DNA from: a virus
Lineage: Duplodnaviria > Caudoviricetes
Length of the DNA: 64,000 bases
IMG/VR virus record: IMGVR_UViG_2636415863_000002
Span: 1 to 64,000 of that record
Direction: 5' to 3' (one strand)
Under the pieces are notes generated by a model, which saw nothing but the letters and a program-made list of their open reading frames with translations, searched no databases and was not told the origin of the DNA. Numbering within the stretch: the stretch's first letter is position 1; each line of letters starts with the position of its first letter. Below, one piece after another: positions 24,285 through 29,828 of the stretch. A program made the position numbers and the translations under genes.

Positions 24285-24650
24285 TTACTCCTCGCCGTCG
24301 GCCAGGCCAGCCAGCCGCTTCACAACGGTCGAGCGCGGCTTGTCCTTCGCCTGCTCCGCCTCGAGAGCCTGTGCGGCACGCCCCGGATCGCCGTCCACCC
24401 ACGTCATGAGGGTGTCGATGGTGCCGTCCACCGGCGGCCCGTCACCCTCCGACTGGACAGGATCCGCCGCCTTCGCGGGGGCGGGCTCGGGCTTCGGCTC
24501 GGGGTCCCTCTCCAGAACCTCGATGCAGCCGACGGGGGCGTTGTCCGCGAAGTGACGGGCCATCTCGCCCTCCAGCTCCGCATCCACGTTGAACGTGGTG
24601 ACGGCGTAGTTCCAGTACGCCTCAAACGGTTTGACCACACGCACACGCAT
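24285..24650 (-). CDS. Virion-associated hypothetical protein
   Basis: Follows capsid gene; WVDGD...ALEAE...PRSTVV C-terminal motif. Confidence 0.7.
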   Translation of the reverse strand: MRVRVVKPFEAYWNYAVTTFNVDAELEGEMARHFADNAPVGCIEVLERDPEPKPEPAPAKAADPVQSEGDGPPVDGTIDTLMTWVDGDPGRAAQALEAEQAKDKPRSTVVKRLAGLADGEE

Positions 24651-24718: not shown

Positions 24719-26041
24719 TCAGGCGTGCTCGATGACCACGCCGCGCTTGTACAGCGCCGCGTCGCCGCTGCCCGCGTCGGTCGGAACGCCGTAGTCGCCC
24801 ACCCACGACCAGGTCGACGACAGGACCTGCTGCAGGCGGTCCTGCGGCGGACGCACCAGCAGCGTCATGTCGACACCCGGTGCCACGTTGACCTGTCGCA
24901 CCTCCGGCACGTCCTCCACCCCGGTGCCGGACAGCAGCGTGCCGGTGTTGTCGAACGGGGCCGCCATCAGCGCGGACGCGCCCAGGACGATCGGCCGGTG
25001 CACCGTCAGCGTGCCCGCCGAGCCACCCAGGATGGTCGGGGTCTCGATGTTCCTGACCCAGTCGATGCCGCCGAAACGGCCAATACTCAGGTCGCGGTAG
25101 ATGGGGCTGTCAACGCGGCCCTGCAGCGCCTGCTTGAAGTCGCTGTCGGAGAACAGTTCGGCCTCAGTGTCCGGGTCGATGTGCGCGACGTAGTAGCCGC
25201 CGAGGGTCGGCACGTTCATCTTCCTGAGCCTCGCGACTGCGCTGCGGAAGTTCTGGAAGGTGACCGTGTTGCTGCTGGCCAGGTCGTAGGCGGTGTTCGT
25301 GCCGGTAGCGCGGATCGTGGTCGGCGCGTTGCTCGAGATCACCGCATCACCGACGACGTCCACCCGCGCGGAACCCAGCGTGAGCGTGTTCGTGGACGTG
25401 TTGACGCCGACGACCGTGTTCGCGACACCAGCGATCGTCACGTTCAGCGGGTTCGCTCCGGACACCGGGGTCGGCACACCGTTGACGTTGACCGTCGAGA
25501 ACCCGTTCACGGACTGCACGATGATCGCCGTGTCCGAGGTGCCCGCAGTGGTGCACCACGTGCGGCCGCCCGCGTAGGACGCGTACAGCTTGTTCCGGGC
25601 GACCTGGTTGATGGTCTGCCCCGCGTTGATGCCGAGGGTCTCCACGTCGGCAAGGAACTTGGAGGCCAGCGCCATCGCGTTGGACAGCATGTTCGTGTCC
25701 ATGCTGTTGGCGTACTGGTCCATCACGACCGACCACTGCTCGATGCTGTAGGTCGACGCGGACGGGTCCGAGCCGGTCACCGGCGTCGTCGCCGGCGCCA
25801 GCAGACCCTTACGGGTGAAAGTCTTCGTGTCCCCGAGCCCGCCCTGCCACGGCTCGGAGTCCGCAATCGCAGGGAACAGAAAGTTCGGCACGAGCGCGTC
25901 ACGGAAGACACGGTCCAGGATGCCGTTCTGCAGCATCGCCTGAATCGCGGCCGGAACGGTCGCACGGACACCGGCGTGCCGGTCAAGACGGAACCACGAA
26001 CGGGTGGTGCCCGCCTTCGGGATGGTGGGGGTCATGCTCAC
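24719..26041 (-). CDS. Major capsid protein
   Basis: 440 aa after scaffold; YYVAHIDP, IGRFGGIDWV motifs; leader WFRLDRH. Confidence 0.85.
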   Translation of the reverse strand: MSMTPTIPKAGTTRSWFRLDRHAGVRATVPAAIQAMLQNGILDRVFRDALVPNFLFPAIADSEPWQGGLGDTKTFTRKGLLAPATTPVTGSDPSASTYSIEQWSVVMDQYANSMDTNMLSNAMALASKFLADVETLGINAGQTINQVARNKLYASYAGGRTWCTTAGTSDTAIIVQSVNGFSTVNVNGVPTPVSGANPLNVTIAGVANTVVGVNTSTNTLTLGSARVDVVGDAVISSNAPTTIRATGTNTAYDLASSNTVTFQNFRSAVARLRKMNVPTLGGYYVAHIDPDTEAELFSDSDFKQALQGRVDSPIYRDLSIGRFGGIDWVRNIETPTILGGSAGTLTVHRPIVLGASALMAAPFDNTGTLLSGTGVEDVPEVRQVNVAPGVDMTLLVRPPQDRLQQVLSSTWSWVGDYGVPTDAGSGDAALYKRGVVIEHA

Positions 26042-26226
26042 TCCTCAGTGATTTCTACGGACACCAGGTCCGGGTGCTGCTCGGCAATCGCCTGGACCCC
26101 GAGCAATGCGGTTTGAATGACGGCCGACACGGCGGCGCAGACGCGACCCCCAGCGACGTGCTCTTCGTGACCGGCCACCTCAATCGAGATGCGCCCCTCG
26201 CCCAGGTGGGCGCGGACTTCGATCAC
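26038..26226 (-). CDS. prp: Prp-like (ribosomal-processing cysteine protease) capsid maturation protease, 62 aa
   Basis: MIEV...V.GH...VCAAVSA His/Cys motif; 4-nt overlaps with both scaffold and capsid genes. Confidence 0.8.
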   Translation of the reverse strand: MIEVRAHLGEGRISIEVAGHEEHVAGGRVCAAVSAVIQTALLGVQAIAEQHPDLVSVEITEE

Positions 26227-27032
26227 GCCGAGCGCTGCCGGTAACCGAACTGGGAGAGGTAATCGGCGACCTCGTCCTTGGATGCCTTCGAGTAGTCGGT
26301 GGGCGCCGGCGCGCCTCGCGAGCCCTGCCCGGGGTCAGGCCGGGGCTTCGGCTTGCGGGCGGGCTCCGGCTCCGCCGCCGCAGCGCTCACCACCGGTTCG
26401 GGCTTCGCCCAATGCGGCTTGCGCTCCAGCAGGTCCGCAAGGTCCGCTTCGATCGCATCGGTATCGATCTCGCCGTCGGAGTCGACGTACTTGCTGGGGT
26501 CGCGCATCAGCACGTCCACGGCATCCGACGGATCCGCGAACTGGCCGACCGCAAAGACCTTCACTTCGGACGACACGGCACGCGCAACGGCCTTCGCCGC
26601 CTGGGTCTTCGCACGCTCGCCCTGAGCCTGCGCCTTCTCCAGCTCGGACTTGTCGCGGTCCTCGAACTCTTGCACCTTGCGTGCGAGAGCAGCCATCTCC
26701 CTCTTCGCGGCCGCGGCTTCCTTCTTCGCCGCAACCCGCTCAGCTTTCATCCGCTCGAGAGCCTTCTTGCCCGCATCGCCCAAGCCGTCCTTCGCCGGCT
26801 CATCACCGGGCTCCGGATCGCCCTCGTCGCCCTCGGGGTCGTCGTCACCATCGCCGTTCAGGGCGTCGGCGAGCATCCGCTCAGCTTCGGGGTCTCCCCC
26901 GTCGCCGGTCCCGGCGCCGGCGCCAGCCGCCGGTGCCTCCGGGTCGCCGCCCTCAGGCTCAGGGTCGTCGTGTCGTGCCAGGTTGAACCAGGTGGCGCCG
27001 GTTGCCGGTGCCGGGTGCTTCTCGGTGGACAT
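26223..27032 (-). CDS. Capsid scaffolding protein
   Basis: Acidic N-terminus, LGDAGKKAL coiled coil, DPGQG C-terminus; leader WFNLARH. Confidence 0.85.
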   Translation of the reverse strand: MSTEKHPAPATGATWFNLARHDDPEPEGGDPEAPAAGAGAGTGDGGDPEAERMLADALNGDGDDDPEGDEGDPEPGDEPAKDGLGDAGKKALERMKAERVAAKKEAAAAKREMAALARKVQEFEDRDKSELEKAQAQGERAKTQAAKAVARAVSSEVKVFAVGQFADPSDAVDVLMRDPSKYVDSDGEIDTDAIEADLADLLERKPHWAKPEPVVSAAAAEPEPARKPKPRPDPGQGSRGAPAPTDYSKASKDEVADYLSQFGYRQRSA

Positions 27033-27103: not shown

Positions 27104-27352
27104 TCAGCTCTTGAGACTGCCGTCGGCTGACCAGGTATCGGGGACAGCGTCCGAGGCGCCGAGCGCCTTGGCCCGCTGGATGATGAAGCGCCGCACCTTG
27201 CTGCGGGCCTCTTCCGTCGGCGGCTGCACACGGCCGACAGCACGGATGGCGTTCTCGAGATCCGCACGATTGCGGATGGGGAATCTCCCTCCAGGCATCG
27301 CCTGGCCCTTCGCGGCCGCCTTCTTCCGGGCGGCCGTGTTCATGTCGGCCAC
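27104..27352 (-). CDS. Small head-module protein (DUF6582-like)
   Basis: GRFPIRNRADLENAIRAVGR...IIQRAKALG motif. Confidence 0.65.
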   Translation of the reverse strand: MADMNTAARKKAAAKGQAMPGGRFPIRNRADLENAIRAVGRVQPPTEEARSKVRRFIIQRAKALGASDAVPDTWSADGSLKS

Positions 27353-27361
27353 GATGTCCTC

Positions 27362-28387
27362 CTACAAGAGGTAGCCAAAGCGCCGCAGGAGCCGGATCAG
27401 TTCGTCCCGGTCCTCGGCGAGCTTGAGAATCTCGGACGGCATCAGCCGCGGAGTACGAAGGCGGAAGCGCGGCAGGCCCTGCTCAACGTCCGCTCGGGTG
27501 CGGGCGAACCGCTGCCCCGTCCTCTGCTCGGTCTCACGCCGCATCTCCTGGAAGAACTCGCCGCGGCGTGTAGTGCTCTCCAGCGTGGCGACGACTTTCC
27601 GCCCATAGACGTCCAGCGTCTGCACGCTCCGGCTGGCATTCACGACGCGGAAGATGTCAGCGCCTTCCCGAATCGCGGTCGCGCCACCCACGCCAAACCG
27701 TCGGTCCTGCTCCGCGCGGGACAGGCTGTTGAAGAACGCCTTCGGGTCCGTAAACCGACCCGGCCGCGCCTTCGTCGACGGACTGCCATAACACTGACAG
27801 CGGCGATGCCTAGCGAAGTCCGCATTCCAGCGGTACCACTTCCCGGCGAGGATCACGCAGCGGGCGCACGCGCCGGGCCGGACCATCCGGATGTAGCCGG
27901 TCACCGTGCGGTTGGCGACCATCGCCACTCCCATCGCTCCCGACCCTGCGTCCGCGACCTCGCTCGCAACGATCCGCTGCAGGCTGGCCATGCCGCCGAG
28001 CATCGCCTCCTGCAACGTCAACCCGCCCTGGATCAGGGTCTTGGCGCGGATGACTGGCAGGTACAGCAGCGAGTCCAGCGCCCGACCGTCCGCCGCGGTC
28101 CCGGCCAACTGCCGGTACTGCACGGTCGACGCGCCGTCCGCGTAGTCCGAGGAGAGCCCGTCCGCGGCCACCATCGCGTCCACGTACCGCTGCCCGGTCG
28201 ACGCCGCGAGCAACTGGCCCGCGGCCAGCGCGCTCACCATCGCATCACCGATGCCCCGCAGCCACGATCCGGACAGGTCCGTGGTGTCCAACTGCCGCCA
28301 CAGTTGCGCCATACGCATCGTCGCCTGAAGCTGCGCGCGGCGTTGCGTCTCACCGTAGGAGGCGACGATCGTGCTGGTGTCGGCCAT
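27362..28387 (-). CDS. Head morphogenesis (MuF/VG15-like) protein
   Basis: ACARCVILAG...FARHRRCQC motif; follows portal. Confidence 0.8.
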   Translation of the reverse strand: MADTSTIVASYGETQRRAQLQATMRMAQLWRQLDTTDLSGSWLRGIGDAMVSALAAGQLLAASTGQRYVDAMVAADGLSSDYADGASTVQYRQLAGTAADGRALDSLLYLPVIRAKTLIQGGLTLQEAMLGGMASLQRIVASEVADAGSGAMGVAMVANRTVTGYIRMVRPGACARCVILAGKWYRWNADFARHRRCQCYGSPSTKARPGRFTDPKAFFNSLSRAEQDRRFGVGGATAIREGADIFRVVNASRSVQTLDVYGRKVVATLESTTRRGEFFQEMRRETEQRTGQRFARTRADVEQGLPRFRLRTPRLMPSEILKLAEDRDELIRLLRRFGYLL

Positions 28388-28388
28388 C

Positions 28389-29828
28389 TCAGCCGTCCGC
28401 GGAAGCCGCCGAGAACTGCGGCACCGGTTCGCCACCACCTGGGCCGCCGTCCGATGGCGCGGGGGCGCCCGGGGCGGTCGGCGGCGCCGTCGACAGCGCG
28501 TGCAGGTCCGCGGCCGTCATCCGGGTCAGAGCCTCATCCTGCATCGCCCGCATCCGGATCCGCTGCTCAGCCGAGTAGCCCAGGTCCTCCCAAGCCTGCT
28601 CGGTCGGCAGGATGCCGGACGCGTGCAGCTTGGTGACCGCGTCCGCCTTCTGCGCATAGGTCGGGGTCGCAGCGTCCCGCCACGCCGTCTCCAGACTGCG
28701 GGCCTTCGGATCCAGGCTGCCGTCCCGGACCAGCAAGGCGAGACGCATCACCCGCTCCCACGCCTCCCCGAACGCCCGCTGGCGCCGCTCGGACCGCTTC
28801 ACCAGGCGAGCCTCCGACGCACGGATCGCGTCCGCGGACGGCGGCTGATCCGTGGCCAGGCCGAGGAAGGCCGGCGGAAGGCCCGTCAACGCGGCCACGA
28901 GCCGGGCAAGCTGGTTGATCGTCTCGTGGAAGTTGGTCAGCTGAGCCTCGGGGAACTGGCCGAACTTGACGCCGTCGCCCTCGTTCACCCACAAGCGGCC
29001 CGCCAACGACGACATCGCGCCGAGCGGCTGCCCCATCTCATCGGCGAAGTCGTCCCTGCTCATGCCGGTCGCCCACCGGCGCGGCATCGCGTGATACTCC
29101 GCACTCACCATCATGTCCGTGGCGATCTTGCAGGCGGCATCCGACAGAGGGATCACCGCACGCAGCTCCGACGTGCCGTCCATGTGCCGCAACCGGGGCC
29201 GGTTCGCCAGCGTCACCACCAGCAACTGACCGAGACCATGCTCATCCCGGTCGACCTCGACCCACGCGCCCTTCTGCTTCTCGAACTGGTGGCGTGAGTC
29301 CGGCAGGTACAGCATCGCGTTCTGCACCGGCATCGACCCGGACGCGGCCGGCTCATCCCACCGCTTGATCGCGGCGATCTCCTGCCGCGTCCGCGGATCC
29401 CGCTCCGCATACGCCTCGAGCGCCGACTCCGCAGTGACGATCGGGATCTCCTCATCGGCGTCGTTCGCGCCGACGATCGCATACGACCGCCGCAGCGCCA
29501 GCGCATCCACGTGCGCCTGCTGCGACCCCTCGTCGAGGTTGTTCGCCTGCCAGATCTCCCACAGGTCATCCGCGGTCGTCTCGCTCTTGGCGTACCGAAA
29601 GCCCTCGATGTCCAGCCGCTCATCCAGCGCATCCACCACCAGCTGCGGCCAGTTGATGACGACCTGCCGCATCCGGTCGGACAGCTCGACCTGAATCTCC
29701 GGCGCCATGTACGACAGCGGCTGAATGCCCTCGTAGTAGGCGTCCATCAACTTCAGCTCGGGCAGCTCCTTGTCGTGCGCCTGCACGAGCCGCTTCAGCC
29801 ACTCCTCCGGGGACAGGTCCAAAGCCAC
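28389..29828 (-). CDS. Portal protein (SPP1 gp6-like)
   Basis: YYEG, NWPQLVVD, NRP...GTSEL, SADAIRA motifs. Confidence 0.92.
   Translation of the reverse strand: MALDLSPEEWLKRLVQAHDKELPELKLMDAYYEGIQPLSYMAPEIQVELSDRMRQVVINWPQLVVDALDERLDIEGFRYAKSETTADDLWEIWQANNLDEGSQQAHVDALALRRSYAIVGANDADEEIPIVTAESALEAYAERDPRTRQEIAAIKRWDEPAASGSMPVQNAMLYLPDSRHQFEKQKGAWVEVDRDEHGLGQLLVVTLANRPRLRHMDGTSELRAVIPLSDAACKIATDMMVSAEYHAMPRRWATGMSRDDFADEMGQPLGAMSSLAGRLWVNEGDGVKFGQFPEAQLTNFHETINQLARLVAALTGLPPAFLGLATDQPPSADAIRASEARLVKRSERRQRAFGEAWERVMRLALLVRDGSLDPKARSLETAWRDAATPTYAQKADAVTKLHASGILPTEQAWEDLGYSAEQRIRMRAMQDEALTRMTAADLHALSTAPPTAPGAPAPSDGGPGGGEPVPQFSAASADG

Follow-up and report, generated by a model that had tools for sequence, protein, structure and literature searches.

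The window analysed in this study is a stretch of viral DNA of 64,000 nucleotides (IMG/VR record IMGVR_UViG_2636415863_000002, positions 1 to 64,000), which is part of an 8.65-Mb genome with 68% G+C. A phage head module is located on its minus strand, and a gene for a protein of 62 amino acids (aa) lies there between the scaffold gene and the major capsid gene. The three genes belong to a prophage. Homology assigns the 62-aa protein to the Prp lineage of cysteine proteases (MEROPS C108), of which it is a half-length, phage-borne form; it is called mini-Prp hereafter. Scaffold and capsid both carry the motif W-F-x-L-x-R-H approximately 20 residues from their starts. Removal of these shared leaders by mini-Prp is, as a whole, the best explanation of the data, and we consider it probable. 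Homology, the conserved catalytic pair, the strict co-occurrence of enzyme and leader, the lack of a leader in loci without the enzyme gene, and the continuity of the motif with canonical Prp sites make it the most likely reading. A phage-borne half-length Prp with matched leaders and His at P1 is a new form of a known type of enzyme; the name "Prp" for such genes is already known from databases. The features concerned are as follows.

24719..26041, minus strand: major capsid protein of 440 aa (start at GTG 26041) or 438 aa (start at ATG 26035) (PHROG 1357 major head protein, E 6.7e-24)
25976..25996, minus strand: WFRLDRH, the leader motif of the capsid, at residues 16-22 when counted from the GTG; cleavage predicted after His22
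26038..26226, minus strand: mini-Prp, 62 aa, putative catalytic pair His20/Cys30 (PF04327, hhalign, invariant H20/C30)
26223..27032, minus strand: scaffolding protein of 269 aa whose leader takes up the first 21 residues (PHROG 4708 head scaffolding, E 1.2e-20; weak PF06810)
26970..26990, minus strand: WFNLARH, the leader motif of the scaffold, at residues 15-21; cleavage predicted after His21

Identity of the 62-aa protein and its host setting

The open reading frame (ORF) of mini-Prp contains GH...VCAAVSA followed by IQTALLGVQAIAEQHPDLV, as the original prediction had described. Pfam places the protein in PF04327 (Peptidase_Prp; E 2.8e-6, profile positions 1-58 of 90) by a marginal score of 27.9 bits against a cut-off of 27, and PHROG 4478 "peptidase" was matched with an E-value of 1.1e-5. 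A profile of 25 mini-Prp members was aligned with a profile of 20 full-length Prps by hhalign at 99.3% (E 4e-20), and full-length Prps were recovered by the mini-Prp family profile with E-values down to 1e-12. H20, C30, and the helix serine S34 are present in the Prp context GH...C-A-A-V-S. H20 and C30 align with His22 and Cys34 of Staphylococcus aureus Prp (SaPrp); both are invariant in 25 of 25 close relatives and in 36 of 36 diverged short relatives, the latter being 35-61% identical to the window protein.

Mini-Prp is the sole Prp match in the whole genome. Host L27 starts with MAHKKG, and the view that actinobacterial L27 lacks the N-terminal extension holds for this host. rpmA directly follows rplU, and the ribosomal-processing arrangement, in which prp lies between rplU and rpmA and L27 is extended, was not found in this genome. 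Because the host has neither its own Prp nor an extended L27, the maturation system would be self-contained, as had been proposed, and "ribosomal-processing" is a misnomer here.

Shared leader motif and predicted cut

The scaffold reads ...GATWFNLARH/DDPEPE and the capsid ...TRSWFRLDRH/AGVRAT, where the slash marks the predicted cut. Counted from a start at GTG 26041, the capsid motif occupies residues 16-22, the positions given originally; the scaffold motif lies at 15-21 rather than at 14-20. The start of mini-Prp is a GTG that overlaps the scaffold stop codon as GTGA, so the 4-nt overlap claimed for both neighbours stands on the scaffold side. On the capsid side, a start at GTG 26041 would give the 4-nt overlap and a 22-residue leader. 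A Shine-Dalgarno-like GAGGAG is found in the last mini-Prp codons, 5 nt before the ATG at 26035, and this ATG may be the true capsid start, which would leave a 20-aa leader and no overlap with mini-Prp.

Across the six frames of the window, W.{0,1}F.L.R[HF] has two matches. A slightly narrower pattern gave three matches when the whole genome was translated in six frames (17.3 million codons); the third occurrence is antisense within the 23S rRNA gene of contig C44, and the only two coding occurrences flank mini-Prp. A chance motif is ruled out by this rarity in window and genome, and a third substrate on contig C44 by the position of the match in the 23S rRNA gene.

The same trio is carried by Streptomyces phage Kromp. 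Its gene 6, named "protease", encodes a 62-aa protein 72.6% identical to mini-Prp, and its leaders are WFQLTRH/DDPDP in the scaffold and WFRLDRH/DIRTT in the capsid. The cleavage prediction is directly testable because Kromp is cultured. A genome-locus sample brought together 41 loci from actinobacterial genomes, the window, and Kromp, two of the loci being without upstream DNA. All capsids (43 of 43) contain F-x-L-x-R-H. Of the scaffolds with upstream DNA, 41 of 41 carry F-x-L-x-R-[H/F], with His at P1 in 35 and Phe in six. The six scaffolds with Phe have His at P1 in their capsids; therefore, one enzyme must accept both. Residues ahead of the motif vary freely in this sample and those behind it are conserved. 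Among 77 high-GC IMG/VR loci, the strict pattern was found on 66 of 73 capsid sides and 64 of 69 scaffold sides, and no locus was without the motif on both sides. Eight of the 12 strict-pattern misses were inspected and all were one-residue variants (WFRIDRH, WYRLDRH, WFSITRH, WTFNLACF). Wherever a related locus allowed a judgement, the enzyme and both leaders were present side by side, in line with the covariation of leader and protease raised with the original prediction.

Capsid relatives with 32% identity are present in Komagataeibacter phage phiKX1 and Ralstonia phage Hyacinthe, whose loci have no Prp gene. These capsids start with MAIANFPASLQP and MPISNFPAALQP, respectively. Because window capsid residue 27 aligns to phiKX1 residue 4, the first residue of phiKX1 corresponds to window residue 24, one after the predicted Ala23. 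The scaffolds of both phages start directly with the proline/acidic segment. Hence, the capsid and scaffold relatives of phages without a Prp gene are also without the leader, and cleavage would be expected after the His. The phiKX1 locus also includes a tail sheath gene.

The motif can be compared with the canonical site. SaPrp cuts KLNLQFF/A (PMC9261936; PMC5744158). One of these papers describes P1 and P2 as held in hydrophobic pockets, leucines at P4 and P6, and a P3 Gln that bonds Gly29 and Asp31 and is essential for cleavage (PMC9261936). In F-N-L-A-R-H, P6, P4, and, in the scaffold, P5 are kept, and His replaces Phe at P1. Low-GC viral contigs encode short Prps, 58-77 aa long, that are flanked by a MuF gene (PF04233) on one side and by scaffold and capsid (PF05065) genes on the other, with leaders FWMFNIQRF/SEGG in the scaffold and KMNLQRF/NGTG in the capsid; others read DLQLF, LQRF, or NLQMF. 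Arg at P2 is common to F-N-L-A-R-H and the low-GC short-Prp sites. Full-length phage Prps of IMG/VR precede scaffold and capsid genes that both bear x[DN]LQxF/[ANSTG]. Lined up as FNLARH, FNIQRF, MNLQRF, and KLNLQFF, the leader motif reads as a graded variant of the canonical Prp site. Actinobacterial short Prps have GGRVC instead of GKDIVC and lack the Asp that binds P3 Gln, and their sites lack P3 Gln. Absence of the Asp in the enzyme and of the Gln in the substrate would be a coherent change.

Five IMG/VR loci (L071, L086, L107, L116, and L119) contain ORFs of 428-460 aa in which a full-length Prp domain is fused to a scaffold-like, coiled-coil-rich tail. DLQLF/ADG or ELQLF/AEG stands directly after the Prp domain, a placement that suggests that the protease frees itself from the scaffold.

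Relatives and fold of short Prps

At 90% identity, mini-Prp homologues fall into 144 clusters; 120 of these are listed, with lengths of 62-65 aa in nearly all cases. Many of them, from Streptomyces, Kitasatospora, Embleya, and Catenulispora, are named "ribosomal-processing cysteine protease Prp" by NCBI; NCBI and SEA-PHAGES already name short-Prp genes "Prp" or "protease". A profile search of 1.84 billion representative proteins gave 738 matches at E<=1e-3. Among the best 150 of the 738, 36 were 55-83 aa long with a single-stretch match, and 104 were 84-130 aa long, mostly with a two-stretch match. Judged by these matches, short Prps are a large, coherent lineage in phages of several phyla. 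Given this spread and the names in use, the protein is less of an isolated case than the original prediction implied.

A tree was built from 52 short and 40 full-length sequences (92 rows, 65 columns). It was poorly resolved, with one of 89 branches starred. The short state changed three times on this tree, compared with a mean of 30 when labels were shuffled (0 of 500 shuffles as low). A tree holding all short forms together scored 39.3 log-likelihood units above the free quick tree, with a p-value of the approximately unbiased test (p-AU) of 0.908. A single origin of short Prps fits the tree and is not rejected; the clustering is supported, gives no direction of change, and may be favoured by the shared-helix alignment, which may itself draw short forms together.

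In a tblastn search of 50,697 phage records, Kromp was the sole real relative of the window short Prp; Escherichia and Enterococcus rows with E-values of 2-5 were dismissed as noise. With a low-GC short Prp as the query, only Kromp and five uncultured fecal phage records were matched among the phage records. Megablast of the head module against phage records returned just a 43-bp scaffold stretch of Mycobacterium phage Aminay. A related-locus search with the single short-loop protein P0157 (His-Cys spacing of 5-6) found nothing. One 62-aa homologue, P0091, is 71% identical to the window protein and is entered at NCBI under Enterococcus casseliflavus, an odd host for a high-G+C actinobacterial family; the label may reflect contamination or a mislabelled assembly. 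Four IMG/VR loci of 34-37% G+C (L055, L060, L062, and L081) carry short Prps of 58-66 aa between class II ribonucleotide reductase and dUTPase genes, outside the head module, and no leader-bearing neighbour was seen there.

The mini-Prp family profile matches solved Prps in two stretches. Residues 1-39 correspond to SaPrp 1-43; in the second stretch, residues 36-52 correspond to SaPrp 82-98 and residues 40-61 to SMU.848 123-144. When full-length Prps were separated into halves, residues 1-49 were matched to the N half (hhalign, 99.3%) and residues 28-61 to the C half (98.4%). The last 22 residues scored higher with the C-terminal region than with the post-helix-1 region in 17 of 20 full-length Prps (mean 37 vs 18). 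Because of the two-stretch alignments and the half-by-half comparison, mini-Prp is considered to lack approximately 40 central residues. By these alignments it is a classic Prp minus approximately 40 residues between equivalent points of its two helices: the N-terminal hairpin, loop, and helix run on directly into the end of the C-terminal helix and the last strand. The direct joining of these parts, which had been suggested from the ORF alone, is borne out by both comparisons. The standard two-lobed chain of approximately 95-120 aa (hairpin-helix, hairpin-helix, last strand) is not present in the 62-aa protein.

AlphaFold 2 (AF2) models, with a predicted local distance difference test (pLDDT) score of 84.0 from 25 sequences and 93.4 from 36 sequences, contain a beta-hairpin (3-9/12-18), a His20 loop, a helix (28-50) starting at Cys30, and a free C-terminal tail. 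In a VIA-align search of 48,161 chains, the Prps 2idl_B (Z 4.4), 1s12_A (Thermotoga maritima TM1457, Z 4.2), 4peo_A (Z 3.9), and 2g0i_A (Z 3.6) were placed at ranks 1, 3, 4, and 9, all below the reliable level of the tool. The placement agrees, as weak evidence, with a Prp fold made of two similar halves. The halves of full-length Prps share a repeated helix, AIxQTAxLGL / AILETMLLGL (hhalign 89.5%, E 2e-6, 15 columns), which hints at internal duplication as the origin of the classic Prp fold.

From these observations a composite model can be drawn, which we regard as possible though doubtful when its parts are taken jointly. The 62-residue chain would be a single hairpin-helix half that becomes an active protease only by self-pairing; two chains would together imitate a single classic Prp chain, and four the classic dimer. 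The short forms would be one old phage-borne lineage, either ancestral to two-lobed Prps by duplication or derived by one ancient deletion between the repeated helices, and the actinobacterial branch would have shifted P1 from Phe to His. To our knowledge, a self-pairing 62-aa chain would rank among the smallest protease subunits.

Proposed mechanism, alternatives, and known systems

In the proposed mechanism, the 62-aa protein would be made from the scaffold-Prp-capsid operon, and the short chain would pair with itself to rebuild the two-lobed Prp fold. It would then bind the N-terminal leader common to the scaffold and the major capsid protein. In W-F-x-L-x-R-H, the P6 and P4 residues are hydrophobic, P2 is Arg, and P1 is His, which some relatives replace by Phe. 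The Cys30/His20 pair would cut after the P1 His. The scaffold would lose approximately 21 residues and gain the new start DDPEPE, and the capsid would lose 20-22 residues and start with AGVRATVPAA. The phage would supply both enzyme and substrates, as the host has neither Prp nor extended L27. The original idea of a phage-encoded minimal Prp acting on scaffold and capsid leaders gains support from homology, the invariant His and Cys, and the co-occurrence with the leaders.

Several points weigh against this mechanism. No experimental or proteomic datum was found on any member of the short-Prp family. Approximately 40 residues of the classic fold are absent, two strands among them, and in T. 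maritima Prp the catalytic loop is stabilised by a bond from a glycine (PMC9405229), which may fall in the missing segment. The Pfam score is just 0.9 bits over the cut-off, and the NCBIfam Prp equivalogs give 14-19 bits against cut-offs of at least 133. Foldseek gave no PDB match for either AF2 model (best E 1.9 and 2.8), and VIA-align superposed the Prps (Z 3.6-4.4) by the second hairpin-helix, in the C-terminal half, not by the catalytic half. The co-variation of Asp and Gln rests on two clades and possibly reflects one event. The Prp-less relatives phiKX1 and Hyacinthe are also without a MuF-like gene, and because of this they cannot separate the two candidate proteases. Finally, it is reported for phage 80alpha that Prp cleavage of capsid and scaffold is dispensable and that the scaffold leader itself is needed (PMC5744158); because of this, a leader can matter uncut.

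The 80alpha result is also the main ground for supposing that the short Prp attaches to the leaders and serves mainly in assembly, as a chaperone or timing factor, with cleavage absent or incidental, and a protein without part of the classic fold would suit such a role. A chaperone role for Prp is the subject of a heading (3.3.2) in one review (PMC9405229). We consider this explanation unlikely, since the invariance of His20 and Cys30 in all 36 diverged short relatives is hard to explain without catalysis and the capsids of Prp-less relatives start at the predicted cut, which indicates that the mature protein needs no leader. It is improbable that the leaders are removed by a host protease or by the MuF/VG15-like protein (27362-28438), the short Prp having another target or role. 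The latter protein is called "head maturation protease" by PHROG 1522 and "capsid maturation protease" in Kromp (gene 4), and the Prp-less, leader-less relatives lack its gene too. It is a rival by annotation name only, however: it matched the VG15/MuF families and no peptidase family in Pfam or NCBIfam, and the leaders correspond at each position to the pattern that Prp recognises. A possible counterpart in 80alpha is gp44, which we take to be MuF-like. The cleaving enzyme of 80alpha is called Prp, and gp44 a minor capsid protein of unknown function (PMC5744158).

The shared leader might instead be a signal for scaffold-capsid docking or for portal docking that is never removed, with the neighbouring Prp gene reflecting inherited synteny only. 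Phage head-protein leaders can serve targeting. The docking signal is very improbable, because enzyme and leaders stay together although gene orders differ (scaffold-Prp-capsid here, Prp-scaffold-capsid in low-GC contigs) and capsid families differ (N4-gp56-like here, PF05065 in L047), and because the motif resembles a known protease site. The ORF has 59% of the usual Prp length, and a functionless, decayed remnant of a full-length Prp gene could be suspected on that account. This notion can practically be set aside; it is already contradicted by the conservation of length in nearly all of the 120 clusters listed out of 144, by short lengths (55-83 aa) in 36 of the 150 best representative clusters, by the invariant catalytic residues, and by the tree, which allows 52 of 52 short forms to lie together on one side of a branch. 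A decayed fragment or pseudogene without function was rejected on the same grounds.

Several known systems resemble the proposed one. SaPrp (C108, clan CR; 4PEO, 7KLD) has the same His/Cys dyad in a GH...C(A/G)AVS context, and its site likewise has hydrophobic residues at P6 and P4 and an aromatic or imidazole residue at P1. It acts on a short N-terminal leader common to otherwise unrelated proteins; its substrates are L27 and, as predicted for the window protein, a capsid and a scaffold, those of 80alpha. SaPrp is host-encoded, 106 aa long, homodimeric, essential for ribosome assembly, and requires P3 Gln and P1 Phe. The window protein, in contrast, is phage-encoded, 62 aa long, lacks approximately 40 central residues, and resides in a host without extended L27; its leader sites have P2 Arg, P1 His, P1' Asp, and no P3 Gln. 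SaPrp and the protease of pneumococcal phage Cp-1 are placed together in MEROPS C108 / clan CR (PMC12445089; PMC9405229). Like mini-Prp, the Cp-1 protease is a phage-encoded Prp relative; it is described as one that trims the N-terminus of the major head protein (PMC12445089; PMC9405229), from which it is reported to remove 48 residues (PMC12445089). It did not turn up in the sequence searches made from mini-Prp. The T. maritima TM1457 Prp (1S12) is similar in having no extended L27 as a substrate and a shortened His-Cys loop (PMC9405229); it differs in being cellular, with 94 residues in the solved chain and both lobes kept. The full-length Prps of uncultured IMG/VR phage contigs are likewise encoded in the head module with sites on scaffold and capsid, and differ in length (86-130 aa), gene order (Prp-scaffold-capsid), and the canonical x[DN]LQxF site.

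No description of short or actinophage Prps, or of the full-length phage Prps of IMG/VR contigs, including the Prp-scaffold fusions, was found in the searched literature; the older Wall 2015, Wall 2017, and Martin 1998, which fall outside that search, may mention phage homologues. In the available portions of Prp-field papers of 2022-2026, Cp-1 is the only source of a phage-encoded Prp and short forms are not mentioned. Excerpts of 2025-2026 Prp preprints mention the motif in staphylococcal phages and neither phage-encoded nor short Prps.

Prp has been studied as an antibiotic target and as a host enzyme borrowed by 80alpha. If the 62-aa protein is active, it would show how little of the Prp fold suffices for specific proteolysis and would provide a natural test of the parts that set P1 and P3 specificity. 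It would add a prohead-maturation route in actinobacterial phages, where annotation credits the MuF-like protein, and would correct the systematic database name "ribosomal-processing" protease in bacteria without such a substrate.

The remaining head-module genes lie upstream of the scaffold gene.

27362..28438, minus strand: MuF/VG15-like minor head protein, 358 aa (PF25310 VG15, E 7.3e-7; PHROG 1522, E 6.9e-64)
28389..29828, minus strand: portal protein, 479 aa, which marks the head module (PF05133 SPP1 portal, E 9.8e-47; PHROG 104, E 2.7e-143)

An HK97-type prohead protease (S78/U35, ClpP-like S14/S49) was not found by Pfam at E<=1 among the seven proteins from the portal to the head-tail connector, and the six head-module proteins scanned with NCBIfam matched none of these families, in line with the earlier statement that no such protease is visible. 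The capsid is 57% identical to the Kromp major capsid protein and is nearest to the N4-gp56 capsid family, the score for TIGR04387 being 46 bits where the cut-off is 60. The MuF-like gene and the scaffold gene are separated by an 82-aa ORF (27104-27352, minus strand) that had no Pfam, PHROG, or NCBIfam match, and no gene is annotated at the corresponding position in Kromp. Immediately downstream of the capsid gene, a 121-aa ORF (24285-24650, minus strand) with a proline/acidic middle and no family match has a counterpart in position in Kromp, where a hypothetical gene is annotated at the same place.

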